Positions 1,918 through 29,483 of a stretch of 32,000 bases of DNA are shown in pieces. Source of the stretch: Candidatus Saccharimonadota bacterium (lineage in GTDB: Bacteria > Patescibacteriota > Saccharimonadia > Saccharimonadales > Saccharimonadaceae); contig CP064995.1 of the NCBI GenBank assembly GCA_016700015.1, positions 240,001 through 272,000 of the forward strand, in the 5' to 3' direction. How positions within the stretch are numbered: position 1 is the first letter of the stretch; the number at the start of each line of letters is the position of its first letter. A model generated the notes under the pieces. That model saw only the letters and a list, made by a program, of their open reading frames with translations, ran no database searches and was not told the origin of the DNA. The position numbers were made by a program, and so were the translations under genes.

Positions 1918-2000
1918 CGTCCAGTCAGAGATAGGTATGAATCAACTAGCTAAAAACAACACCTAGTAGGCTGACGCCAGTGGTTCTGTATAAGAACATA

Positions 2001-2029
2001 TTGGAACATCGGTCGCACTGGTGTATGCT
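2001..2029 (+). promoter_or_regulatory. Candidate sigma70-type promoter for the secreted-protein/SipW module
   Basis: TTGGAA (2001-2006), 17-nt spacer, TATGCT (2024-2029). It is followed by the SD-like cAGGGAa before ATG 2069. Confidence 0.4.
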
Positions 2030-2068
2030 ATAACTATATAACCACTAACATAAAGGAATACAGGGAAT

Positions 2069-2563
2069 ATGAAAAACAAAATTTTAATTGCCGCAATTGC
2101 CGTGGTTGTACTTGCGTCTGTAGCCTATGCTGCCTTTGCGCAGAATCTCCAGATTAATGGTACCGGTACGGCAACGGGTGACTGGAACGTGAAAATAACC
2201 GGCATTACTAGGACTTCAGGAACGGGTGTTACAGAAGCTTCAGGCCCATCATTCACAGATACATCAGCTACCTTTAGTACGAATCTGCAGTATCCTGGCG
2301 CGACGGCAACTTACTCTGTGGTAATTGAAAACCAAGGGAATATTGCTGCACAGTTGAGTACAATTACAAACCTTACTACAATCAATTCGGCAGCTCCTAC
2401 CTATATTACCTACGCCGTGAATGGTGTCACGCAGGGAAGTACACTTGCTGCAGGCGCTACCGCTACAGCTACTGTCACAGTGACGTGGGATGCGGCTGCA
2501 ACAGGTACAACCGGCGCAAATAAAACAGCACAAATCGACTTTAACTACATCCAGAGCACCTAG
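2069..2563 (+). CDS. Small secreted beta-rich protein, TasA/camelysin-like candidate fibre subunit
   Basis: N-terminal signal or anchor MKNKILIAAIAVVVLASVAYA|AFAQ. The mature part is rich in T/A/G/N. The strand LQYPGATATYSVVIENQGNIA and the C-terminal strand AQIDFNYIQ resemble TasA/Peptidase_M73 family patterns, from my memory of that family. The gene sits next to a SipW-type peptidase. Confidence 0.6.
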   Translation: MKNKILIAAIAVVVLASVAYAAFAQNLQINGTGTATGDWNVKITGITRTSGTGVTEASGPSFTDTSATFSTNLQYPGATATYSVVIENQGNIAAQLSTITNLTTINSAAPTYITYAVNGVTQGSTLAAGATATATVTVTWDAAATGTTGANKTAQIDFNYIQST

Positions 2564-2584
2564 TAGACGCTACTAAGGGACGGG

Positions 2585-3403
2585 GTGGCCACTATTCGCA
2601 CACTAGCAACATGGCGTGGTACACTATGGCGTGATATCGCGCTGATTGCTGTACTACCACTCCTATTTGTTAGCACGAGCTACGCACTATACACCCAAAA
2701 ACTCACCGTGAATGGGACGGGAAGTGGGGTGACGTACACCAGCTCGCAAGGACTATTTGTTAGCTATACAAAGACGGTTGTACAAGCAGGTGCAAACTGG
2801 AACTACTCCATCGCTTTTATTGTTAAAAATAATGGCACGAGCGCTATTGGGAGCTGGCAGGTTGGATTTACGATGCCGACAGGCAGCACGTCGCTGGTTT
2901 GTGCGAGTAGTGTCACTTGCTCGGCGGCTGGTATGGCAGTTACAGCTTATAGTACGGCGACAAACAAGACGATTAACGCTGGTGCGCAAAGGACATTTAC
3001 GGTTACGTTTACAGCTACGGTTGCAAATGCTGTCTTGCAGAATCTCTCGGTCGCCGGGTATTATGCCAATACGTACCAGACCATCCCTGGGCTTACGGTG
3101 TCGAATACTAGAGGTACACGCACGAAGTCGGGTCAGTGGTATTATTGGCCGTATAATTTTACTGTTACCAACAATTCAACTATTGCCATCAGTGCTTGGC
3201 GGATTACGGCGACATGGAGCAGCACGACCAATCGCGTACAATCCATGGCAACAACGGTAAACTACACGACAAGCGCAACTCAACTTACTATAACCAGTAA
3301 AACTGCAGTTGCCAAAAATAGCACGTTCAACTTTACGGGCTCGCTGGGCTCTACGAGCACCACATGGGTATTGAGCGGTATCGTGATACAGGGGATGCCG
3401 TAA
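2585..3403 (+). CDS. Secreted protein with two tandem CBM2-like beta-sandwich repeats; shares its N-terminal processing motif with the preceding gene
   Basis: GTG start preceded by aAGGGAcGGG. The N-terminus ...LLFVSTSYA|LYTQKLTVNGTGSG parallels the upstream protein's VAYA|AFAQNLQINGTGTA. There is an internal repeat: IVKNNGTSAIGSWQVGF... versus FTVTNNSTIAISAWRITA... Confidence 0.6.
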   Translation: MATIRTLATWRGTLWRDIALIAVLPLLFVSTSYALYTQKLTVNGTGSGVTYTSSQGLFVSYTKTVVQAGANWNYSIAFIVKNNGTSAIGSWQVGFTMPTGSTSLVCASSVTCSAAGMAVTAYSTATNKTINAGAQRTFTVTFTATVANAVLQNLSVAGYYANTYQTIPGLTVSNTRGTRTKSGQWYYWPYNFTVTNNSTIAISAWRITATWSSTTNRVQSMATTVNYTTSATQLTITSKTAVAKNSTFNFTGSLGSTSTTWVLSGIVIQGMP

Positions 3404-4572
3404 TGTGGTGGCGAACTCTGCGTGTTGTTCGTCCGACTGCGTGGATGATTCTCGTAGCTGTACTGACCGCAACGACACTCACGGTCTGGTTGCGAGTGGC
3501 TCAGATTGTGCCGATTGCATGGATCACCTATACTATCCAGCCTCTTCTGCTCGTCGTAATTGCTAGTTGGTCACTGCTTGCCACGCGTGGTCGTAGTAAC
3601 CGAGCGCGGCATCAATCAGACAAAGCAATAATTGTCGGTAGCGCTGTGGCCATGTGGTTTGTACTTCAATTTGTTAGCGGTATAGTTTTCACCTATACAA
3701 GGAATGCGCTGGCAGCAGATGGCAAGAGCATAGCGCTTAATATTTTGGCCTATAGCATTGTTGCAATTGCAATCGAAATAACTCGCTCGCGACTCATTAT
3801 GCTTGTCGGACGTCGGAATGCCGTGTGGTTTGGAATGATTGTGACAATAGTGCTTGCGCTTCCCTATATGAATTTAGGACAGGCGGTTGAATTGACGTCA
3901 GCGGAACGAGTGGTCAAGATGATATTTATCGACGTCGTACCTTCACTGATGATGAGTACCGTGTTAACATTTTTGGCAGTAGCTGCAGGGTTTGCTTCAC
4001 AACTTACCTTCAGGCTCGGCATTGTTGCTGCGACTATATTGCCACCGATCTTGCCAAAATATGACTGGTATTTGATCGCCATGTCGTCGATGCTTGTCTG
4101 TGTAGCAGTATATTTAGTAATAGATCGCAGCAGCCGCCCTCATGTTAATCACCGGGCACATCGCATCTCGCAGGTAAGGATTGCCTATGAGATTATGGCG
4201 TACAGTACAATTGTTGCACTAATATTATTTATGACAGGCATTTTTGCCTATCGACCGATGGCTATCGTCTCCAATAGTATGAAACCGGTCTTCAGTAGAG
4301 GTGCGATGATAGTTGTGCAGCAAGTGCCTGCTGTGGACATAAGCACAGGCGATATAGTACAATATCAGGGACCAGGAAGAATGGTGACGCACCGTGTTAT
4401 AGCGATAGACTATGATCCTTCGGGCACAGGTGAGCGAATATTTATCACCAAAGGTGATAATAGCCCGAGCCAAGACCCAGTTGTGCGTGCGGAGCAAATC
4501 ATCGGCGTTGTGAAGTTTAGTATTCCTTACATCGGATATCCAACAGTATGGTTAAGAGAATTTTCGGTTTAG
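3403..4572 (+). CDS. Fusion of a polytopic membrane domain (~8 TM, ~285 aa, unknown family) to an ER/archaeal-type signal peptidase I (S26B, SipW-like)
   Basis: The ATG at 3403 overlaps the upstream TAA (TAATG). The C-terminal ~105 aa carry the motifs SNSMKP (Ser codon 4276-4278), GDIVQY, MVTHRV (His codon 4390-4392) and TKGDNSPSQD, matching the SipW/Sec11 Ser-His type motifs SGSMEP / THR / TKGDNN. Confidence 0.75.
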   Translation: MWWRTLRVVRPTAWMILVAVLTATTLTVWLRVAQIVPIAWITYTIQPLLLVVIASWSLLATRGRSNRARHQSDKAIIVGSAVAMWFVLQFVSGIVFTYTRNALAADGKSIALNILAYSIVAIAIEITRSRLIMLVGRRNAVWFGMIVTIVLALPYMNLGQAVELTSAERVVKMIFIDVVPSLMMSTVLTFLAVAAGFASQLTFRLGIVAATILPPILPKYDWYLIAMSSMLVCVAVYLVIDRSSRPHVNHRAHRISQVRIAYEIMAYSTIVALILFMTGIFAYRPMAIVSNSMKPVFSRGAMIVVQQVPAVDISTGDIVQYQGPGRMVTHRVIAIDYDPSGTGERIFITKGDNSPSQDPVVRAEQIIGVVKFSIPYIGYPTVWLREFSV

Positions 4573-4580
4573 GTGGGTAA

Positions 4581-5741
4581 ATGAAAAACACATTTGAGCA
4601 ACAGCAATATAATCGTCGATTGCGTATCATGACCACAAGCGGGATTGTTTTGTTATGCTTTGCTTTGGGTGTTGCTGTCGGGCTTTGGTATCAAAAAAAT
4701 TCCGGAGCAACTGTAAGTGCGCCTTATCACTACTCGGTATCGCAATCTATCAGCAATGCGGTGTTGTACCATCAGAATAGCTTTTATGGAACAGACGACG
4801 TAATAGATAATACTGCCTTTGTAGCTCCACTTACCAATGAGATCCGCACACAATTTCATTATCAATATAGTGGCACAAAAAGTGCGGCGCTCGAGTATCG
4901 TTTTGGTGTTGCAGCGCTCATTCGGGGGACCTATGCGCTATCGGGGAAAGAAGAAGAGTCGGCAAATGTTTGGACGAAGCAGTATGAGCTCATAGCGCCT
5001 ATTACTAAGCAAATCAATGGCACAAATTTTGTGATTGATCAACCGATCACAATCCCCTATGAACAGTATCGTATATTGATCGATCAGTACCGCTCAGCGC
5101 TACAGGTACCAGTGGACGGTGAAGCAATCATTTCGATTGTCGTTAGCGTAAAAGGTGTGATTGACGGCACTCCGTTTGATGACACTAAGACGTCAACTAT
5201 CGCGCTACCTTTAACGAGGCAAATATACCAGCCGGCAACCAAATATGAAAAAAATAGTAGTAAAGATATTACGACAGCGTCGAGCCGAGCGACGCAGGCT
5301 GGTGTAAGCCAACTCCTACTAGTCACTTCAGTCGTGTTTACAGCGCTTGGGGTAGCTCTGATTGTCTTCGCAATGCGACGAAGGATTTTCCGCACGTCCT
5401 ACCAAAAAGAACTCGATAAAATTTATCGCTACCATGAAGGAATAATTGTACGCGCCCGCGAACACCCAGATTTGTCGGGTAAGCGAATTGTTGCGGTCAA
5501 GAGCTTTGATGATATTCTGAACCTCGAAGAAGAAGTAAAGGCGCCAATCGTCAGTAGTGAGGCTGGCGAGCATGCAACAAGGTTCATGATCATAAAGGAT
5601 GACGTGGTATATATGTACCTACTTGGTAGTTTATCAACGACGGATGACGAAGTGCTAAGGGAGATTCAAGATGCTTTCGACGAGAAGACAGAAGTAGCAA
5701 AAAAGCCATTAGCAAGGACTGTTCACCGCAAAGTACAGTAA
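4581..5741 (+). CDS. Bitopic membrane protein: TM, ~200-aa external domain, TM, ~120-aa cytoplasmic tail. Its architecture recalls the DUF5305 proteins found beside SipW-type peptidases.
   Basis: SD AGGTGGG before ATG 4581. Hydrophobic segments are GIVLLCFALGVAVGLWY and LLLVTSVVFTALGVALIVFAM. The family assignment rests on context and architecture only. Confidence 0.45.
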   Translation: MKNTFEQQQYNRRLRIMTTSGIVLLCFALGVAVGLWYQKNSGATVSAPYHYSVSQSISNAVLYHQNSFYGTDDVIDNTAFVAPLTNEIRTQFHYQYSGTKSAALEYRFGVAALIRGTYALSGKEEESANVWTKQYELIAPITKQINGTNFVIDQPITIPYEQYRILIDQYRSALQVPVDGEAIISIVVSVKGVIDGTPFDDTKTSTIALPLTRQIYQPATKYEKNSSKDITTASSRATQAGVSQLLLVTSVVFTALGVALIVFAMRRRIFRTSYQKELDKIYRYHEGIIVRAREHPDLSGKRIVAVKSFDDILNLEEEVKAPIVSSEAGEHATRFMIIKDDVVYMYLLGSLSTTDDEVLREIQDAFDEKTEVAKKPLARTVHRKVQ

Positions 5742-7797: not shown

Positions 7798-9578
7798 TGC
7801 GCCCACTGCGTACCATAATTAGTTATACTAGCCATTTGCGGGCGTATATGGTTGCTGTTGCGGTTCTGGCGGTATTTACGTCGCTTATGGCGTTTGTGCC
7901 ACCGTTTGTTATTAAGCTTGTGACCGACTGGGTAGTGCACATATCACAAGGAACCACGATGTTTAGCTGGCAACAATTAGGGGCATACGCGCTGGTGCTG
8001 ATTGGTGTTGCGGTGCTAAGCGCAGTGATCGCAGACATCAACGGCTATTTAGGAGATCAGTTATCAATCCGTGCTCGTCATCAATTGTCGACGGCCTACT
8101 ATGGACACTTACTAAAGTTGCCACAGCAGTATTATGACAATGAAATTAGCGGCAAGATTATAAATCGACTTAGTAGGGCGATAACTGACATTACCAACTT
8201 TTTGCAATTCTTCTCGAACAATCTTCTCCAGATGCTACTTACCACTATCCTGACACTATTTGTTTTATTGTGGTATAGCTGGGGGTTGGCATTGTTGTTT
8301 GCGGTGCTCATTCCGGCAAATTTGTATCTGACGGCAAAAACAAGTGGTAAATGGCAAGCACTTGAAAAACAAAAGAATCACCATTTCGATATTGCGAGCG
8401 GTCGATTTGCGGAGGTAATCGCACAAGTACGCTTAGTAAAAAGTTTTGTTACTGAAAAACGGGAGTTCCGCTTTTTTGACAATGAAGTAAAACAAATGAT
8501 TGGTCTCACCGCAGACCAGTCGCGGCACTGGCACATGATGAATTTCCTGCGCGGTCTGGTATTTGGTATCATTCGCGCTCTCAGCCTTATTCTCATATTC
8601 TATCTTGCTGCTAATAAGCAATTAACAATCGGTGATATTGCAATGCTCGTGGTTCTTATTCAGCAGGCGAGCATGCCGCTCAATGGTCTTAGTTTCTTTG
8701 TCGATAGTTATCAGCGAGCAGTTGCAAATAGCAAGGACTATATTGACGCCATGAATGAGCCAATCGAGCCTGACGATAGTGCGCGGAAGAAATTGGCTAT
8801 AACAACAGCCCGCGTCGATTTTCGTGATGTTAGTTTTGGGTATAATACGCAACACCATGTTCTTGATGGGGTGAGTTTTTCAATCCTGCCGGGTCAAAAG
8901 TTGGCATTAGTTGGTGAATCGGGTGGCGGCAAAACGACGATTTCAAATCTACTCATGGGACTTTATGTGCCACAACAGGGAGCGATTCTTATTGATGGAC
9001 AAGCAACTGACACTATTCGACGGCGCGACCTGCGGCAATCGATAGCCACTGTATTTCAAGACGCCTCGCTTTTTAGCGGAACGATACGAGAAAACATTGC
9101 CTATGCGAAACCGGGTGCAAGTGATAAAGAAATATTTGCTGCCGCCAAAGTAGCTAACGCGCTAGGATTCATCAACAAACTCGACAAAGGACTTAACACC
9201 GAGATTGGCGAGCGTGGCATAAAGTTGAGTGGTGGCCAAAAACAGCGACTTGCTATCGCCCGCGCCGTGTTGAAAGATGCACCAATCTTAATTCTCGATG
9301 AGGCAACCAGTAGTCTGGATAGTCGGGCTGAACACGAAGTGCAAGAGGCACTTAATCGACTCATGCAGGGGCGAACAGTGCTTATTATTGCTCATCGACT
9401 TAGCACAATTGCTGGCGTTGATGTAATAGTGACACTAAAAGACGGTCGTGTCGACGAAGTCGGTACGCCCGCAAGGCTTGCTATGACAAATGGTATCTAC
9501 GGTCAGCTTTTGGCGCTTCAGATGGGCACTACTGAAGCCGCAAAGAAGAAATTAGCCGAGTACGAAATCACCAGTTAG
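7785..9578 (+). CDS. ABC exporter, fused permease/ATPase half-transporter (MsbA/CydDC-like architecture)
   Basis: Six N-terminal TM helices, Walker A GESGGGKTT, signature LSGGQKQRLAIARA and Walker B ILILDEATS. The start is moved to MRKIVRPL... because the upstream 33 codons (rich in C/H/Y) look non-coding. Confidence 0.9.
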   Translation: MRKIVRPLRTIISYTSHLRAYMVAVAVLAVFTSLMAFVPPFVIKLVTDWVVHISQGTTMFSWQQLGAYALVLIGVAVLSAVIADINGYLGDQLSIRARHQLSTAYYGHLLKLPQQYYDNEISGKIINRLSRAITDITNFLQFFSNNLLQMLLTTILTLFVLLWYSWGLALLFAVLIPANLYLTAKTSGKWQALEKQKNHHFDIASGRFAEVIAQVRLVKSFVTEKREFRFFDNEVKQMIGLTADQSRHWHMMNFLRGLVFGIIRALSLILIFYLAANKQLTIGDIAMLVVLIQQASMPLNGLSFFVDSYQRAVANSKDYIDAMNEPIEPDDSARKKLAITTARVDFRDVSFGYNTQHHVLDGVSFSILPGQKLALVGESGGGKTTISNLLMGLYVPQQGAILIDGQATDTIRRRDLRQSIATVFQDASLFSGTIRENIAYAKPGASDKEIFAAAKVANALGFINKLDKGLNTEIGERGIKLSGGQKQRLAIARAVLKDAPILILDEATSSLDSRAEHEVQEALNRLMQGRTVLIIAHRLSTIAGVDVIVTLKDGRVDEVGTPARLAMTNGIYGQLLALQMGTTEAAKKKLAEYEITS

Positions 9579-10108
9579 GGATGACGGTTAATCTGTTTTA
9601 GCGCGAAACGGTAAACGGCAACAATCGGTATGAGCGATATAGCAAGGATTGGCATGCCAAGCCATAGTACCAGCTCCATATTAGCTGTATCGGGCACGAA
9701 CTGTCTCTCGATAATTGCCGGAACAATAATAGCCAGCGCCCAGAGCAGTGAGATCACGCCCAGAAGATAGGTGGTAAGTAATAATCCATAAAGGACTCGC
9801 AACTTGCGGGATGTATAGAAAATGACCAAATACAGTGAGCCGCGGAGCAAGATCGAAACAGTGAGCAGGGCAATTGGCCACCACAGCGCGCCGCCAATAT
9901 GAACCAGCAGACCACTAAATGTGATCATGAACTGTGCATATGCAAAAACGAGAAGGGTATGTGTGACCTCAGTCGATGCTTGGACAAATATAAGATTACG
10001 CCCAGCTGGTTTCTGTGTAATGCGCAGTGTTAGCCATATTTCAAGCACACTAAAGAAGAGATAAATAATAACCGGCACGAGAATAAGGCAATAAAGCACG
10101 GCTACCAC
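9575..10108 (-). CDS. 177-aa polytopic membrane protein occupying the CydB position; non-canonical partner of CydA
   Basis: About 5-6 hydrophobic helices. Its start overlaps the cydA stop by 7 nt. It is about half the length of a typical CydB and lacks the usual N-terminal DGFD-like pattern. Confidence 0.5.
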   Translation of the reverse strand: MVAVLYCLILVPVIIYLFFSVLEIWLTLRITQKPAGRNLIFVQASTEVTHTLLVFAYAQFMITFSGLLVHIGGALWWPIALLTVSILLRGSLYLVIFYTSRKLRVLYGLLLTTYLLGVISLLWALAIIVPAIIERQFVPDTANMELVLWLGMPILAISLIPIVAVYRFALKQINRHP

Positions 10109-11364
10109 GACTGTTTCTCCTCGCTACGCCAGCGCCGTGTCGTATAGACCAGAGCATACGTAGTTGTGAGCCCGAGGAGTACAAACAGTACTATAAATAG
10201 GTACTGAGTGCGATGAATATTGGCGCCTAGCGTATACGCAGACTCTGTGCTGAGTTTGCCGACGACTGTCCAGGTTTGACGACCGAATTCTGTGATAAGC
10301 CAACCGAGTTCAAGCATGACGAATCCGATACTACTGAAAGGGACTAGTACAATGCGTAGCCATCGCGGCTGTTTGTGAATTCGCCATCCATACCATACGA
10401 CGAGCAATATAATAGCGCATGAGAGCCCGACAAGGATCATTTTGATGTCGAACATCGTATGCACAACTAAGAAAGGCCATTGGTCACGAGGAATTTCATT
10501 AAGACCTTGCACTTTTGTATCAGTGGACCATCCTACCAGCCAACTAAGGACACCTGGCAATACAATACCACCCGTTGCTTTGCCACTATCATCAATCATG
10601 CCGCCAATTCGCAGAGGAGCATTTGTCTGAGTGTTGTCTAGAATTTCAATTGCAGCTAATTTGTGCGGCTGAGTCGATGCGAGTAATACCGCGGATTGAT
10701 GTCCCAGCACGGCGAGCGCGATAAGTAGTAGCCCGGCAATAACACCAAGCTGCAGCATAACAGACTGCAAGAATTTTTGCGCTACTAGCGTTTGTTTTTT
10801 TAGACTCCGCCACGCGATATAGCCAAGCACCAAAACAGTCGTGGAGAATAGGTAGCTGGCAACAGAGTGCATTACTTCATTGGCGGTTGTAGCGGTAAAT
10901 ATCGCTTCGGGGTTATTCATGTAGGCGTTCACCGACGTAATAAAGAATGCGGAACCAATCGTGCCGATGCTAATTGGTAGTCCGATCCAAAAATGCTTTA
11001 TGCTGCCGATTGTATTTAACGTGCCTAAGTACCAGCTTAGGAACACCGCTTCAATGAGGAACATATAGCCCTCAAGCTGAAAAAGAACACCCACGCTAGG
11101 GCGCACGTGATCAAGAAAAGGTGCCCACAGTGTCGACAACTGAAGCGCAACTGCAGTTCCGGTGAAAACGCCGGCAACTACAAATACGGCAGCCCAAAGC
11201 GCCAGTAGGCGTGTTAGCCGTCGGTACTCATGGCTTTTGTGTCTCCAAGCCTGCCATTCAAAATAGCTCATTAGTACCGGCAAGCCGATAGAAATGGTGA
11301 CAATAATGATATGTACAGCAAGAGTATGTCCGATGAGCTCGCGTCCAGCTGAGAGGGCATCCAT
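10102..11364 (-). CDS. cydA: Cytochrome bd-type quinol oxidase subunit I (short Q-loop)
   Basis: N-terminal His-containing helix (GHTLAVHIII), LEGYMFLIEAVFL, the Q-loop motif QPHKLAAIE, and GWLITEFGRQTWTV. Confidence 0.85.
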   Translation of the reverse strand: MDALSAGRELIGHTLAVHIIIVTISIGLPVLMSYFEWQAWRHKSHEYRRLTRLLALWAAVFVVAGVFTGTAVALQLSTLWAPFLDHVRPSVGVLFQLEGYMFLIEAVFLSWYLGTLNTIGSIKHFWIGLPISIGTIGSAFFITSVNAYMNNPEAIFTATTANEVMHSVASYLFSTTVLVLGYIAWRSLKKQTLVAQKFLQSVMLQLGVIAGLLLIALAVLGHQSAVLLASTQPHKLAAIEILDNTQTNAPLRIGGMIDDSGKATGGIVLPGVLSWLVGWSTDTKVQGLNEIPRDQWPFLVVHTMFDIKMILVGLSCAIILLVVWYGWRIHKQPRWLRIVLVPFSSIGFVMLELGWLITEFGRQTWTVVGKLSTESAYTLGANIHRTQYLFIVLFVLLGLTTTYALVYTTRRWRSEEKQSW

Positions 11365-11452
11365 GGGATATATTCGCTTTCTTCTTTATGCTTATGGCTA
11401 TGTTTGCTATTATACATGCTGTGATAAAAATAATAACTATACGAGAAAGCTA

Positions 11453-12655
11453 ATGGCGGTCCAGGTTACGATTGTCGGTGGGGGTTTTGGTGGAGTAAAA
11501 GCCGCGCTGGAGATCGCAAAGGACTCGAAAAGTCATGTTACACTTATTACTGATAGAGCCGACTTTCAGTACTACCCTACGCTCTATAGCAGTGCCACTG
11601 GCCATAGTCATGCCGAAAGTTGGGCGCCGCTTGGTGAGATTTTTGCCGATCATCCCAATGTTCACGTCTATGTCGATGAGATACAATCGATTGATCCAAC
11701 AACCAAGTCGGTGATTGGCGTGTCGGGAACTCGCTATGACTACAAAACGCTCATCATTGCCATAGGGGTTGTCACTACCTACTTCAATATCCCCGGGCTC
11801 GAAACCTACGCCTATGGGATAAAAAATGCCGATGAAATTCACCGTCTAAAACAGCGGCTATTTATTGATATCGCCGAGAAGGGTGAGCTTGACAAGAACT
11901 ATGTCATCATTGGAGCCGGACCAACCGGTGTCGAGCTAGCGGGTGCGATCGGTGAATATATCCGCCGACTATGTGATAACTACAGGGTGCGAAACGATAA
12001 GGCTAAAGTACGGCTTATCGAAGCTGCACCACGTGTATTGCCGCGGTCACACAAGAAAGTTAGCCAGAATGTGGCTCGCAGGCTCAGGGGACTTGGCGTC
12101 CGTATCGAAACCAACAAGCGTGTCGAGAAAGCTAATGCCCACGAATTGATTGTAAGCGGAAGTCCTATCGAGAGCCACACCGTTATTTGGACATCTGGTG
12201 TCTGCAATCATCCACTATTTGCGCGTCATCCTGACATTTTTACACTAGCCAAAAATGGTCGGGTGCAAGTTGACGACAAATTACAAGCTTACGAAGCCAT
12301 CTATGTTATTGGGGACAATGCCGCCACGCCATATACGGGACTTGCGCAAACTGCTATTCATGATGCGAGATTTGTAGCCCGTCATCTCATGCATCGTACC
12401 GCGAAGCGTAGCTACCGGGCCGTACAGCCAGTACAGGCCATCCCAGTTGGTGCGGGATGGGCGGTAATCGAGTGGCGCTGGATACGAATTTATGGGTGGC
12501 TTGGGGCATGGATACGTCGTGTCGCTGACCTAGTGGGCTATAGCGAGCTTTTGCCGCTCGGCACATCTCTAGGATCGTGGCGTGCCGCGAAAGTATATGA
12601 AAACGATTATTTTACTCCAACTTCACGCACGATTCCTCGTCGTAAAAAACAGTAA
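11453..12655 (+). CDS. ndh: Type II NADH dehydrogenase (NDH-2), FAD-dependent pyridine nucleotide-disulfide oxidoreductase
   Basis: VTIVGGGFGGV and VIIGAGPTGVELAG dinucleotide-binding motifs. The start is set at ATG 11453 (MAVQVTIVGGG); the longer track ORF runs antisense into cydA. Confidence 0.8.
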   Translation: MAVQVTIVGGGFGGVKAALEIAKDSKSHVTLITDRADFQYYPTLYSSATGHSHAESWAPLGEIFADHPNVHVYVDEIQSIDPTTKSVIGVSGTRYDYKTLIIAIGVVTTYFNIPGLETYAYGIKNADEIHRLKQRLFIDIAEKGELDKNYVIIGAGPTGVELAGAIGEYIRRLCDNYRVRNDKAKVRLIEAAPRVLPRSHKKVSQNVARRLRGLGVRIETNKRVEKANAHELIVSGSPIESHTVIWTSGVCNHPLFARHPDIFTLAKNGRVQVDDKLQAYEAIYVIGDNAATPYTGLAQTAIHDARFVARHLMHRTAKRSYRAVQPVQAIPVGAGWAVIEWRWIRIYGWLGAWIRRVADLVGYSELLPLGTSLGSWRAAKVYENDYFTPTSRTIPRRKKQ

Positions 12656-26091: not shown

Positions 26092-27003
26092 ATGGGGCTA
26101 ACTATTACTGAGATTCGTGACCGTACACTTCGTGCCAGGCATTTGATGCAGCGGAGTCGGCAGCAGGGCTTTGCGGTGGGTGCATTTAACATCGACAACC
26201 AAGAAACGCTGATTGCCGTCTGTCGAGCAGCGCAAAAGCTTAATGCACCAGTGATGGTCGAAGTGAGCGATGGCGAAGTAAAAGCACTTGGTCTCGAAAA
26301 CATTCGCGATATGGTCGACAATTACCGTGACGAATACGGGGTGGAGATATATATTAACCTTGACCATAGCCCAACGGTTGAGGCGTGCAAGCAAGCGATC
26401 GATGTTGGGTTTGAATTTATTCATATTGACATCAGCCAGGCAAATCACGATGCTACTGAAGAAGAAATAATCGCTAAAACCAAAGAGGTGGTGGAGTACG
26501 CCCGTTTTACAGGTGCGCTCGTTGAGAGTGAGCCACACTATTTTGGCGGCAGTAGCAACGTACATCACGAAGACATCAACTACGATGAGATTAAAAAAAC
26601 GTTTAGTACACCTGAAAGTGCCAAAGCATTTTGCGACGCGACGGGTGTCGATACGTTTGCCGCAGCGATCGGCAACTTGCACGGTAAGTATGACGTACCG
26701 AAAGAACTTGATATTGAGCTACTGCAGCGTATCCGCGAAAGCATCGGTTGCCAGATTAGCCTGCACGGTGGCAGCGGCACGCCACTCCACTACTTCGAGG
26801 AAGCGGCTAAAGTGGGCGTGAGTAAAATCAACATCAATAGCGATATGCGCTATGCATTCCGTACGGTGCTCGAGCAGTCGCTTCAGCAGCACCCCGATGA
26901 ATTTGCAGTGGTGAAACTAATGGACGACGTAAAAGACGCTGTGCAAGCGGTGGTCGAAGAAAAGATCACAGCATTTGGCAGTGCCGGCAAGGCAGTTCGC
27001 TAG
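26092..27003 (+). CDS. fba: Class II fructose-bisphosphate aldolase family protein
   Basis: GAFNIDNQETLIAVCRAAQKLNAPVMVEVS, LDHS, HIDIS, LHGGSGTP. Confidence 0.9.
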   Translation: MGLTITEIRDRTLRARHLMQRSRQQGFAVGAFNIDNQETLIAVCRAAQKLNAPVMVEVSDGEVKALGLENIRDMVDNYRDEYGVEIYINLDHSPTVEACKQAIDVGFEFIHIDISQANHDATEEEIIAKTKEVVEYARFTGALVESEPHYFGGSSNVHHEDINYDEIKKTFSTPESAKAFCDATGVDTFAAAIGNLHGKYDVPKELDIELLQRIRESIGCQISLHGGSGTPLHYFEEAAKVGVSKININSDMRYAFRTVLEQSLQQHPDEFAVVKLMDDVKDAVQAVVEEKITAFGSAGKAVR

Positions 27004-27004
27004 C

Positions 27005-27994
27005 ATGGTGAAGATTTTGAGTATTGGCAAGGGCACGCAAGACGTGTTCCTCAAAAGTGACGAATTTGACCCGCACAAAGAAGGCAGGCATATGTATACT
27101 CACTTGCCACTCGGTCTTAAAATGGAGGTCGAAGACGTGCATTTTTGTACAGGTGGCAATGCGACCAATGTTGCAGTGACTTTTGCGCGGCAGGGGCTGG
27201 AGAGTGGGTACCTGTGGGGGCTGGGTGACGACCCGGCGAGCGCGTCGATACTACGCGAGCTGGACGAAGAGGGAGTCAATACCTCGCATGTGGTACAAAA
27301 GCCTGAATATCAGTCGGGCTATTCGGTGATTATGATTGCGACAAATGGCGAACGAACTATACTCAACCATCGTGGCAAAGCATTCGGTCGCACCGGACGA
27401 CACAACTTTGACCTAGCTGTAATCGGCTCGTATGACTGGATATATCCAACAAGTCTTGGTGACGGTGGTTTGCCACTGCTTCACGAAATTGTCTCGACAG
27501 CCGCTCGGCACAAGGTAAAGGTGATGCTCAACCCAGCTGGGCCGGAATTGGCTGATCCTGCAAGATTAAAAACAATCCTTGAAGATGTCGAGGTACTTTG
27601 CTGCAACAAAGAAGAAATGAGTTTGCTCGTTGCAGGCGCTACTTGTGAAGAACTGGCACTTCACGCGTTAAGCTACGTGCCAGTAGCCATCGTGAGTGAT
27701 GGCCCTAATGGCGTGGTTGCGACCGATGGCAAAACCATCGTACGTGCTGGTATGTATGAAGACGTGCCGGTAGTGGATCGCACCGGTGCGGGTGACGCGT
27801 TTGCCAGTGGATTTTTGAGTCAGTGGAGCCAAGGTAAAAGTCTCAAGCAGTCGATTATATTTGCCAGCGCCAATAGCACGAGTGTTGTCACAAAGATTGG
27901 CGCGAAGGCTGGTATACTACCCAAAAGTGTACGGCTACATGAGATGCCAATTCATGAACGTCCCGTTAATTTACGCGAGGCGCCCCATGTCTAA
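27005..27994 (+). CDS. PfkB-family carbohydrate/nucleoside kinase
   Basis: The ATG lies 1 nt after the fba TAG. Motifs present are TGGNATNVAVTFARQG (di-Gly motif) and DRTGAGDAFASGFL (anion hole and catalytic Asp). Confidence 0.85.
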   Translation: MVKILSIGKGTQDVFLKSDEFDPHKEGRHMYTHLPLGLKMEVEDVHFCTGGNATNVAVTFARQGLESGYLWGLGDDPASASILRELDEEGVNTSHVVQKPEYQSGYSVIMIATNGERTILNHRGKAFGRTGRHNFDLAVIGSYDWIYPTSLGDGGLPLLHEIVSTAARHKVKVMLNPAGPELADPARLKTILEDVEVLCCNKEEMSLLVAGATCEELALHALSYVPVAIVSDGPNGVVATDGKTIVRAGMYEDVPVVDRTGAGDAFASGFLSQWSQGKSLKQSIIFASANSTSVVTKIGAKAGILPKSVRLHEMPIHERPVNLREAPHV

Positions 27995-29483
27995 ATATCT
28001 CCAACAGCTACTTGGTGCCGATGAGCCGATGTTCAGTACGACGCTCAGGCAGCTAGAAAAAATGACTGGGCATAAGGCGACAGACGTGGCTTATATCGCT
28101 GATATGACAGCACGAGCCCACCAGGTGATGCGCCGTATGGGACTCGATGTTGCCGACACCACCGAACACGAACTCTACCGTGCGCTCGCTGCCCATGCCC
28201 ATAACCAGACCCTGTTCATAGCAACCGATGACGTGGGGATCATCATCCACGGTCAGGCTGTATCGTTTAATTACGAAGACGTGCAGGAAAACATTCATCG
28301 CCCATTTGCTGAACGCATGACTGAGCACATGAAGTGCCAAATCAAATACGGCCTGACTTCGCGCTATGTGGCCGCCGATGGTGATGATGAAGTAGCAATT
28401 GAAGAACTTATTGCTCAAGCAGGGCTTAGTGTGTGTGACATGAGCGACTATCACGAACATAAGCAGACAAATGTAAAGCAAAAGACTCGGCCGCCGCGGC
28501 TGCTATTTATTGGTGACATTTTTACCGACGCGTTTATCAAACTCAGCCCGAAAGTCGCTCGCGTCGATAAAGACGACCAGGGTCGATCATGGATTAGTAT
28601 TCCATTCGGTGGCCGTCCGCCCTATGAGGAAGTGGAGATCGTCCAATCGGTTGGCCCAGCTCCCAATGCAGCCGTTTCTTGTGCGCGACTTGGACTTGAT
28701 GTGAGTTTGATGAGTTGGCTTGGTGACGACAAGCCTGGCGGTGATTCGCTCGCATACCTTTCCAAACAACAGGTTAACACGCAGCTCGTATCACAGAAAA
28801 AGCAGGCAAAATCAAACTACTACTATGTACTGCGGCTTGGCGCAGAGCGTACGATTTTGACGAAAGATGAAGACTATAGCTATGTATGGCAAGAGCCGCA
28901 TATGGTGCCAGATTGGATCTACCTGGCCAGTATTAGTGGTGAATCGTGGGGGTTGCATGAAGCCCTCGACAACTACCTAGGGCAGCACCCAGACATAAAA
29001 TTTGTCATTCAGCCGGGTACGTTTCATTTTGAATGGGGCGTCAAGAAGATGGCGCAGCTTTACCGACATGCCTATATGGTGATCCTTAACCGCGAGGAGG
29101 CCGTTATGCTCACAGGCAAAAGTCATGAGTCGATACCAGAACTAGCAGCTGCGTTGCATGAACTTGGTCCGCTCTATGTGGTGATTACTGATGGCCCTTC
29201 TGGTTCGTACGCGTCTTTTGATGGAAAGCTCCTAAAAATGCCTAACTATCCAGACCCGGCGCCGCCGTATGATCGCACTGGTGCTGGCGATGCTTTTGCG
29301 AGTACGGTGGTCGCAGCGATGGCACTAGGAGAAGGTTTTGAAACGGCCCTTACGTGGGCGCCTATCAACAGTATGAGTGTTGTCCAAAAACTCGGGGCTC
29401 AAGCGGGATTACTTTCCAAAGCGACAATCGAGGAGTATATCAAAAAAGCACCGAAATGGTATAAGTTAGAGGAGATTAAATAA
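27987..29483 (+). CDS. PfkB-family kinase with a ~170-aa N-terminal domain of unknown function
   Basis: The start ATGTCTAA overlaps the upstream stop by 8 nt. The C-terminal ~320 aa carry DRTGAGDAFASTVV, but the di-Gly motif is replaced by VGPAPNAAVSCARLG. I do not recognise the N-terminal MSKYLQQLLG...AQAGLSV region. Confidence 0.75.
   Translation: MSKYLQQLLGADEPMFSTTLRQLEKMTGHKATDVAYIADMTARAHQVMRRMGLDVADTTEHELYRALAAHAHNQTLFIATDDVGIIIHGQAVSFNYEDVQENIHRPFAERMTEHMKCQIKYGLTSRYVAADGDDEVAIEELIAQAGLSVCDMSDYHEHKQTNVKQKTRPPRLLFIGDIFTDAFIKLSPKVARVDKDDQGRSWISIPFGGRPPYEEVEIVQSVGPAPNAAVSCARLGLDVSLMSWLGDDKPGGDSLAYLSKQQVNTQLVSQKKQAKSNYYYVLRLGAERTILTKDEDYSYVWQEPHMVPDWIYLASISGESWGLHEALDNYLGQHPDIKFVIQPGTFHFEWGVKKMAQLYRHAYMVILNREEAVMLTGKSHESIPELAAALHELGPLYVVITDGPSGSYASFDGKLLKMPNYPDPAPPYDRTGAGDAFASTVVAAMALGEGFETALTWAPINSMSVVQKLGAQAGLLSKATIEEYIKKAPKWYKLEEIK

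Follow-up and report, generated by a model that had tools for sequence, protein, structure and literature searches.

The locus studied here raises the question which surface structure, if any, is built by four adjacent genes of a Saccharibacterium, two of them encoding secreted proteins and two encoding membrane proteins. The genes, called p1 to p4 in the following, lie on the forward strand of a stretch of 32,000 nucleotides from a Candidatus Saccharimonadota bacterium (contig CP064995.1, positions 240,001 to 272,000), which we refer to as the window. An earlier note on this DNA had described them as a surface module of a genome resembling those of the Candidate Phyla Radiation, in which TasA-like secreted proteins are paired with a dedicated signal peptidase of the endoplasmic reticulum (ER) type. 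Our answer, which we consider fairly probable, is that the module encodes a donor-strand fibre of the AbpX/Tafi type, with a tip subunit of lectin fold and a dedicated peptidase complex. For the assignment of the single components, i.e., the peptidase, the DUF5305 protein and the two substrates with a shared leader, our confidence is high.

The open reading frames (ORFs) described before were all confirmed from the ORF list. Four co-directional ORFs in a genome of the Saccharibacteria span positions 2069-5741 (Table 1), with a gap of 21 nt between p1 and p2, an overlap of p2 with p3 and a gap of 8 nt between p3 and p4. The real start of p3 is probably the ATG at 3403, giving a product of 389 aa, because this ATG forms a TAATG overlap with the p2 stop codon, homologues measure 386-396 aa, and the end of p2 coincides with the start of p3 in other loci as well. 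The single promoter assumed in front of the genes did not emerge from a consensus promoter scan: the 151-nt gap in front of p1 contained no site, and over the scanned region the counts were not above those in shuffled sequence. As a candidate promoter there is the extended -10-like element TGCTATAAC at 2026-2034, recognized by eye only. The records identical to p1 and p2 are IPM09_01345 of Candidatus Saccharibacteria bacterium and its neighbour. A mobile-element origin of the module was considered and rejected, since comparison with plasmids and phages gave no matches and the G+C content of the module equals that of the rest of the window, without any anomaly.

How far the arrangement is conserved was determined by a profile-guided scan with one genome per species, which yielded 46 loci. 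The loci L001-L036 are of Saccharibacteria type, 32 of them labelled as Saccharibacteria, Saccharimonas, Saccharimonadales or Saccharimonadaceae and four as "bacterium" only; L037-L046 stem from metagenome-assembled genomes (MAGs) of Bacilli, Clostridia or other Bacillota, mainly from the gut. Conservation of the neighbourhood, on which the initial reading had been made to depend, was indeed observed: the order p1-p2-p3-p4 occurs in 31 of the 36 Saccharibacteria-type loci; the remaining five comprise four truncated by the end of their contig and the degenerate L033. All four genes are found together in 35 of the 46 loci. When the ORFs of all loci were clustered all against all, p1 (46 loci), p3 (40), p2 (38) and p4 (38) were the only conserved families; the next real ORF family reached at most 6 of the 46 loci, and the flanks vary between loci. 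The four-gene arrangement is thus far beyond chance. No anchor, sortase or regulator is co-conserved with the module in this clustering. About a dozen loci carry a second tandem copy of p1. The order of the module is also kept in L037-L043, gut MAGs of Bacilli and Clostridia such as Clostridium sp. CAG:571, at approximately 50% identity of p1; p2 was undetected in three of these (L038, L042 and L043).

Some further observations concern single loci. An extra copy of p1 is inserted between p3 and p4 in L037 and L038. For the Bacilli copies in general, both old inheritance and a transfer between phyla are possible. The degenerate locus (L033:75-960) holds a truncated p1 (residues 1-120) and a p2 fragment (residues 16-113), and p3 and p4 are absent despite 5.6 kb of downstream sequence; either decay of the copy or a misjoin in the assembly would account for this.

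The peptidase p3 is the component with the clearest relatives. Its C-terminal part of approximately 115 residues scores 81.4 bits against NCBIfam TIGR02228, the archaeal/ER-type signal peptidase I (cut-off 51.85). Human SEC11A and SEC11C are found by phmmer with E-values of about 1e-8, and the boxes SNSM/SGSM (Ser305), THRV/VHRV (His343) and KGDN/KGDN are aligned in register; the alignment takes in the S-to-A mutant chain 9rjb. Residues S305, H343, D365 and D371 are invariant among 51 homologues. The catalytic residues Ser-His(-Asp) lie in SxSM, HR and GDN boxes and a catalytic Lys is lacking, as in the ER/archaeal type (S26B). This is in line with the best Foldseek match in the PDB, SEC11A of the human signal peptidase complex (7p2p_A, E 5e-4). 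With the Bacillus SipW equivalog NF046067, p3 obtains 52.9 bits, below the cut-off of 190. Judged from these scores, p3 is a homologue of SipW and not an orthologue. SipW is a small peptidase and is not known to carry a polytopic domain. The AlphaFold2 (AF2) model of p3, with a predicted local distance difference test (pLDDT) score of 84, shows a helix bundle followed by a beta domain, and its approximately nine transmembrane (TM) helices agree with the hydropathy profile. The description of p3 as a SipW-type Ser/His peptidase fusion can therefore be retained, the fusion partner being a polytopic membrane domain. This domain of approximately 280 residues has no Pfam or PDB match. Amidase_6 was considered as its identity and discarded: the weak matches in 30 of the 51 homologues lie within the peptidase domain and are uninformative. 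The membrane domain (window 3403-4248, residues ~14-295) has conserved polar residues, all located in predicted helices or interhelical loops: N114, N126 and D234 do not vary, and at least 90% of the 51 homologues keep E138 and R141.

The fourth protein, p4, matches Pfam PF17231 (DUF5305) with 76.7 bits (cut-off 29), as had been suspected. It had been taken as bitopic; we predict two TM segments instead of one, which flank an outside domain and are followed by a cytoplasmic tail. This topology agrees with the published description of DUF5305 at AbpX loci. Against PDB sequences, p4 gave no match. In the literature searched, DUF5305 appears only in the context of TasA-superfamily fibres, and its pairing with a dedicated signal peptidase I (SPase I) is described only from fibre loci. 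At AbpX loci, DUF5305 represents a putative accessory subunit of the SPase I, at times fused to the peptidase; the SPase I that accompanies AbpX, in bacteria as well as in archaea, is structurally distinct and has ten TM helices, and the loci also hold minor subunits and tip proteins (bioRxiv 10.64898/2026.01.04.697558). In the Tafi system of Haloarcula, the signal peptidase TafD has the DUF5305 protein TafG as its companion, deletion of tafD leaves TafA unprocessed and abolishes the fibres, and clusters that combine a peptidase with DUF5305 and two or three Sec-secreted proteins of approximately 150-200 aa were reported to be conserved in Thermococcales and Archaeoglobales (PMC11821415, PMC12337348). 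The same pair is found here: a dedicated SPase I and a DUF5305 gene stand beside the subunit genes, and the approximately nine TM helices of p3 come close to those of the AbpX-locus enzyme, with which it was compared by description only. Therefore, the module belongs to the described class of fibre loci. By analogy with the archaeal TafD/TafG genetics, and in view of their co-conservation, p3 and p4 may form one processing complex.

If the locus is of this class, p1 is the expected fibre subunit. It belongs to a large unnamed family of its own, whose profile comprises 5073 clusters (50% identity) at E <= 1e-3. Compared with 177,635 PDB sequences, this profile gave AbpX as the sole match, at an E-value of 1.2, which is not significant by HMMER. 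Profile-profile alignment by hhalign was more informative. The probability of the p1-AbpX match was 90.8% with a profile of Saccharibacteria only, and with 146 diverse members (Neff 4.6) it was 95.3% locally over 137 columns and 96.0% globally over 157 columns. As controls, the mature part of AbpX was shuffled 60 times with the leader kept, and the reversed sequence was used as well. The true pair scores 53.5, the shuffled controls 16.7 +/- 2.8 with a maximal score of 27.3 and a maximal probability of 23.7%; reversed AbpX yields 0.1%, and the mature sequences alone yield 78.8%. The AbpX precursor was taken from the preprint supplement and corrected where the PDB alignment covers it, so that the C-terminal third is the supplement text alone.

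The predicted cleavage sites are aligned in register in this comparison, VAYA↓AFAQNLQI in p1 and LTYA↓QWSETLSL in AbpX (arrows mark the cleavage site), and in both proteins position 2 of the mature chain is aromatic and positions 6 and 8 are hydrophobic. A corresponding donor-strand motif after the SPase I site is present in p2 (TSYA↓LYTQKLTV) and in TasA (TWA↓AFNDIK); cleavage itself is predicted. The YA↓AF junction had been named as a hallmark before, and it proved to be the most conserved part of the p1 family: across its diverse members, conservation amounts to 3.2 bits per column in the cleavage region, 2.3 in the next 11 residues and 1.65 in the folded body. In the AF2 model of p1 (pLDDT 86), the seven-strand sandwich is complete and residues 24-39 are disordered. 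An N-terminal segment which is disordered in the monomer yet conserved fits the expectation for a strand used between subunits, and is also compatible with a pure recognition tag. Taken together, the alignments indicate homology of p1 with AbpX, which belongs to the TasA superfamily and is a donor-strand fibre subunit solved by cryo-electron microscopy (cryo-EM); p1 is TasA-like at the level of the superfamily only. A sequence match of p1 to DUF1102 or TafA/E was not obtained. In a profile made from full-length distant relatives, a match to a reductase in the PDB turned up, which is spurious because long C-terminal extensions had entered the profile.

Such extensions are a feature of the family in their own right. 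Many members (P0288-P0410) measure 300-870 aa and carry the p1-like leader, strand and domain at their N-terminus. C-terminal repeats of adhesin type, i.e., LRR_5/BspA, DUF285/PARCEL, Flg_new and DUF6273, are found in the large members, and a few have two p1-like domains. The adhesin-type domains are taken as consistent with the role at the fibre end that is proposed below for p2.

The second secreted protein, p2, is related to p1 in a restricted manner. The overall hhalign probability of 95.9% originates from the leader and the N-terminal strand (97.1% over 30 columns), with the common stretch ASVAYA↓AFAQNLQINGTGT in p1 and STSYA↓LYTQKLTVNGTGS in p2, while the bodies are not significantly related (2.8-38.6%). 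The leaders of p1 and p2, MKNKILIAAIAVVVLASVAYA and MATIRTLATWRGTLWRDIALIAVLPLLFVSTSYA, contain no RR motif and are of the Sec type. The body of p2 matches Pfam CBM_2 (PF00553) with 30.7 bits (cut-off 24), and a profile of its first domain (A2) finds the CBM2 structures of ChiC (2rtt, E 3.6e-9) and Cex (1exg, E 4.1e-9) in the PDB. The second domain is homologous to the first (hhalign 95%). CBM2 modules bind cellulose or chitin by surface aromatic residues; in the alignment with 1exg, the two Trp of Cex that lie inside the aligned region stand opposite non-aromatic consensus residues of p2. Mature p2 is basic, with a pI of approximately 10 and 0% Asp+Glu, and has a conserved pair Cys106/Cys112. 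By these matches, the body of p2 is a pair of CBM2-like domains, and p2 is not a second p1. It had been announced as a secreted two-domain protein, which is confirmed, and as a further TasA-like protein, which does not hold. A strand donor at the fibre end, acting as nucleator or tip adhesin, is the role proposed for TapA, AbpB and TafC (PMC10151520, PMC9245690, PMC11821415), and p2 may play a parallel one.

From these components the following process can be proposed. From their sequences and the conservation it is evident that p1 and p2 leave the cell through Sec; their unusually conserved leaders end with Y-A. The SEC11/SipW-class domain of p3, carried outside the membrane on the domain of approximately nine helices, would then cut after Y-A together with p4. 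Enzyme class and catalytic residues of p3 are evident from the alignments given above, and the pairing with these substrates as well as the role of p4 are suggested by co-conservation and the archaeal TafD/TafG genetics. Cleavage would free the N-terminal strand, which is amphipathic (pattern x-aromatic-x-Q-x-L-x-I) and leads into an N-G turn; following the homology to AbpX, this strand would enter the beta-sandwich of the next p1 (donor-strand complementation), giving rise to a thin polymer of p1. Because p2 has the same leader and strand and lacks a body of p1 type, it presumably donates a strand and cannot accept one, which would put it distally, as the nucleator and/or as a tip that binds glycans. 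Growth would take place at the membrane, with the newest subunit still held by its leader, and attachment to the cell may use a still uncleaved basal subunit or the membrane domain of p3.

A bolder version, which we offer tentatively and regard as rather doubtful in its entirety, is a tip-first, peptidase-gated donor-strand pilus. Here, p2 as a lectin of CBM2 fold would sit distally and recognize a glycan of host or substrate, and the approximately nine-TM domain of p3 would form, together with DUF5305, the monoderm equivalent of an usher that couples cleavage to strand insertion. This would be a previously unseen appendage of environmental Saccharibacteria and small-genome gut Bacilli.

Several observations weigh against a fibre. 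That p1 polymerises at all is suggested by analogy, via its homology to AbpX. Mature p1 contains 4.2% Asp+Glu, compared with approximately 15% in AbpX, and has Gln at position 4, where AbpX has a Ca-coordinating Glu. Since p1 is not acidic and has this Gln, the calcium-dependent mechanism of AbpX is not transferable, and complementation mediated by calcium is unlikely. The body of p1 also weakly resembles the Ig-like domains CARDB, DUF11, DUF7507 and HYDIN, and part of the similarity between p1 and AbpX could stem from a common beta-sandwich motif. A component that would anchor the product to the cell is not encoded in the module. Distant p1-like genes occur without peptidase genes in L045 and L046, and none of the 36 Saccharibacteria-type loci is labelled as coming from an oral or cultivated strain.

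The main rival explanation regards p1 and p2 as secreted proteins of an ordinary kind, located at the surface or binding glycans, which form no polymer and are matured by a specialised peptidase complex, the N-terminal motif serving only as a recognition element of the peptidase or as a wall-retention tag. The weak matches of the p1 body to Ig-like domains (CARDB, DUF11, DUF7507), which extend along its whole length, and the CBM2-like body of p2 speak for such proteins; so do the module without an anchor or assembly gene, the Foldseek search without a pilin-like structure for p1, and the AF2 monomer, whose seven-strand sandwich is already complete without the N-terminal segment. Against it stand the full-length profile homology of p1 to a donor-strand subunit solved by cryo-EM, with the cleavage sites in register, and approximately 11 conserved residues on the mature side of the cleavage site, which are common to two proteins with unrelated bodies. 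Also, the combination of DUF5305 with a dedicated SPase I is, as outlined above, known in the literature only from fibre loci. We regard this explanation as unlikely, and keep it as the one to be compared with a donor-strand fibre.

Far less survives of the explanation that p1 is a true TasA/camelysin (PF12389) and the locus an orthologue of tapA-sipW-tasA of Bacillus. Three features of p1 resemble TasA and form its starting point, namely the junction A↓AF, the motif PG..N.G and a terminal strand F/Y-x-Q, and homologues of PF12389 have been reported from Patescibacteria (PMC9245690). Yet neither p1 nor p2 matches Peptidase_M73 (PF12389), TasA (NF046066), TIGR04088, TIGR04089 or TIGR04090 at E <= 1. 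Among 102 diverse relatives of p1, nine match Peptidase_M73 at E < 0.01 (best E 6e-4), all of them below the gathering score (at most 17.8 bits vs 22.5). These matches cover only profile positions ~49-83 of 196, a PGD..N.G motif of approximately 30 residues which also occurs in CARDB/DUF11 Ig-like domains. Three of the 102 match NF046066, and two match TIGR04090 at E 1.2e-3. Alignment of p1 with TasA of B. subtilis by hhalign (sequence checked against PDB 8AUR) gave 21-26%, with a score (28.9) at about the level of the best shuffled control (27.3), and the Foldseek search of the p1 model against the PDB returned no TasA/ABP-like structure. A phmmer search with TasA against the p1 family was discarded, as only the PGD..N.G motif was aligned and the TasA leader was placed inconsistently. 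The low score of p3 with the SipW equivalog and the absence of a polytopic peptidase and of DUF5305 from the tapA-sipW-tasA operon (PMC9245690) point in the same direction. We therefore consider this explanation very improbable and largely refuted: of the claim of TasA-like secreted proteins, the relation at superfamily level stands, by way of AbpX and for p1 only, and the membership in TasA/camelysin proper falls.

The weakest explanation, p1 as a type IV pilin-like protein that keeps its hydrophobic N-terminal helix as filament core, builds on the top Foldseek match of full-length p1, the helix and beta-sandwich of the Sulfolobus AAP type IV pilus subunit (E 0.018, TM-score 0.21), and can be dismissed as hardly credible. 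This match is not significant, neither p1 nor p2 has the class III leader G↓F/M-x-x-x-E, and the peptidase encoded next to them is of the S26 ER type and not an aspartyl protease like PilD. Moreover, the p1 leader ends in A-Y-A, a canonical small-x-small site of SPase I, which is aligned to the predicted AbpX cleavage site where the solved mature chain begins, and no type IV pilus assembly genes were found in the window.

With the donor-strand fibre as the preferred reading, the module can be compared with known systems. Closest in design, together with Tafi, are the AbpX loci, i.e., AbpX of Pyrodictium abyssi with its homologues in archaea, Bacillota and Chloroflexota (bioRxiv 10.64898/2026.01.04.697558, PDB 9sj2). 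In common with the module they have a small subunit, secreted through Sec and folded as a beta-sandwich, whose N-terminal donor strand bears an aromatic residue at mature position 2, features which for p1 are predicted; further, they encode minor or tip subunits, a DUF5305 accessory protein and a dedicated SPase I of TIGR02228 type with approximately ten TM helices. Unlike AbpX, p1 is a member of its own family and is not acidic, and the module differs by the absence of an SLH or LPXTG anchor, a sortase and a regulator of cyclic di-GMP, by the CBM2-like body of the tip protein and by its host, a Patescibacterium.

In the Tafi loci (TafA-G; PMC11821415, PMC12337348), TafD is likewise paired with a DUF5305 protein, and the DUF5305 span of TafG (132-349) nearly coincides with that of p4 (131-346). 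Major and minor pilins and a tip protein which gives the first donor strand are described there, and non-halophilic relatives of Tafi use Sec leaders, as the module does. The differences concern the peptidase, since TafD has four TM helices, an N-terminal peptidase and an extra C-terminal domain, whereas p3 has approximately nine TM helices and a C-terminal peptidase; the leaders, which are of the twin-arginine translocation (Tat) type in the Tafi pilins; and the gene content, as TafB (regulator) and TafF (anchor) have no counterpart in the module.

In tapA-sipW-tasA of B. subtilis (PDB 5OF1, 8AUR; PMC9674648, PMC10151520), too, the operon encodes an ER-type peptidase for the processing of a fibre subunit and an accessory protein. 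The predicted mature p1 begins with A-F like mature TasA, and the TasA fibre arises by donor-strand exchange, with TapA supplying the complementing strand, the role proposed here for p2. In contrast, mature p1 has 143 aa and TasA 234 aa, p1 does not match the TasA profiles, and DUF5305 is not among the three genes (PMC9245690). A further system, SipW-BsaA of Clostridium perfringens, is comparable in that TIGR04090 is described as the BsaA family of SipW-dependent biofilm matrix proteins. BsaA, from a monoderm bacterium, is small and secreted, and its subunits polymerise in a SipW-dependent manner. It differs in that p1 has no match to TIGR04090, which is reached only by the two distant relatives mentioned above (E ~1e-3).

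Table 1. Features of the module and their positions in the window (nt, nucleotides; aa, amino acids).
Feature	Position (nt)	Strand	Length or residues	Description
Upstream intergenic region	1918-2068	+		possible extended -10 and Shine-Dalgarno-like AAGGAA (2053-2058), read by eye
p1	2069-2563	+	164 aa	putative major fibre subunit
p1, leader	2069-2131		aa 1-21	Sec-type, end VAYA↓AF
p1, N-terminal strand	2132-2164		aa 22-32	conserved, AFAQNLQINGT
p1, body			aa 41-162	seven-strand beta-sandwich
p1, semi-tryptic N-terminal peptide				AFAQNLQINGTGTATGDWNVK, predicted from the cleavage site
p2	2585-3403	+	272 aa	putative tip or nucleator subunit
p2, leader			aa 1-34	end TSYA↓LY
p2, N-terminal strand			aa 35-47	LYTQKLTVNGTGS
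p2, body			aa ~55-162 and 163-272	two tandem CBM2-like domains
p3	3364-4572	+	402 aa (from longest start)	dedicated signal peptidase
p3, membrane domain			aa ~24-301	~9 TM helices
p3, catalytic domain	4210-4551		aa 283-396	S26 catalytic domain
p4	4581-5741	+	386 aa	DUF5305 protein, putative peptidase accessory subunit
p4, TM1			aa 16-34	predicted TM segment
p4, extracytoplasmic domain				between TM1 and TM2
p4, TM2			aa 245-263	predicted TM segment
p4, C-terminal domain				cytoplasmic
p4, DUF5305 match	4971-5618		aa 131-346	PF17231

The genes around the module in the window are housekeeping genes: pheT, FMN reductase, HtpX, an ABC transporter, cytochrome bd subunit I, RelA/SpoT, GAPDH and transketolase. 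The ORF just upstream (1033-1917, +, 294 aa) has no Pfam match at E <= 1e-5 and stands beside the module in only one other locus (L002); it therefore lies outside the module. Scans of the window for tRNAs and Rfam families gave no matches. The gene of cytochrome bd subunit I (10102-11364, -) is followed by an ORF of 177 aa (9575-10108) without a Pfam match at E <= 1e-5. This position usually holds subunit II, and the ORF would be short for a canonical CydB. A pyridine nucleotide-disulphide oxidoreductase (longest ORF 11294-12655, +) overlaps the divergent start of cytochrome bd by approximately 70 nt; its own start is probably located further downstream, because the Pfam match begins at residue 57. 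Finally, two adjacent genes of PfkB-family carbohydrate kinases (26975-29483, +) overlap by approximately 130 nt in their longest ORFs, and the second ORF, of 540 aa, has a kinase domain in its C-terminal half only.

The earlier note had further stated that no description of such a fibre module was known in Saccharibacteria-like episymbionts. This overstates the novelty: loci with a pilin, a tip protein, an SPase I of approximately ten TM helices and DUF5305 were described in archaea and bacteria in 2025-2026 (PMC11821415, PMC12337348, bioRxiv 10.64898/2026.01.04.697558). In the literature searched, nothing describes such a module in Saccharibacteria or links them with TasA, SipW or donor-strand fibres, save one sentence that counts Patescibacteria among the phyla with PF12389 homologues (PMC9245690). 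What appears to be new is a minimal, non-acidic variant with a CBM2 tip in environmental Saccharimonadaceae, shared with gut Bacilli, as well as the size of the unnamed p1 family and its link to AbpX.

In the literature searched, the surface of Saccharibacteria is mainly discussed in terms of type IV pili, with a type IV secretion system and some adhesins beside them. A conserved and compact fibre module would give environmental Saccharimonadaceae an appendage of a second kind. With four genes and neither regulators nor anchors, it would also offer a minimal system for how a SEC11-like peptidase and DUF5305 drive the assembly of TasA-superfamily fibres. Since the p1 family has more than 5,000 clusters and is often fused to adhesin repeats in gut Firmicutes, a function assigned here would extend widely. 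If the tip-first donor-strand pilus held true, Patescibacteria would have a second route to host attachment that is independent of type IV pili.

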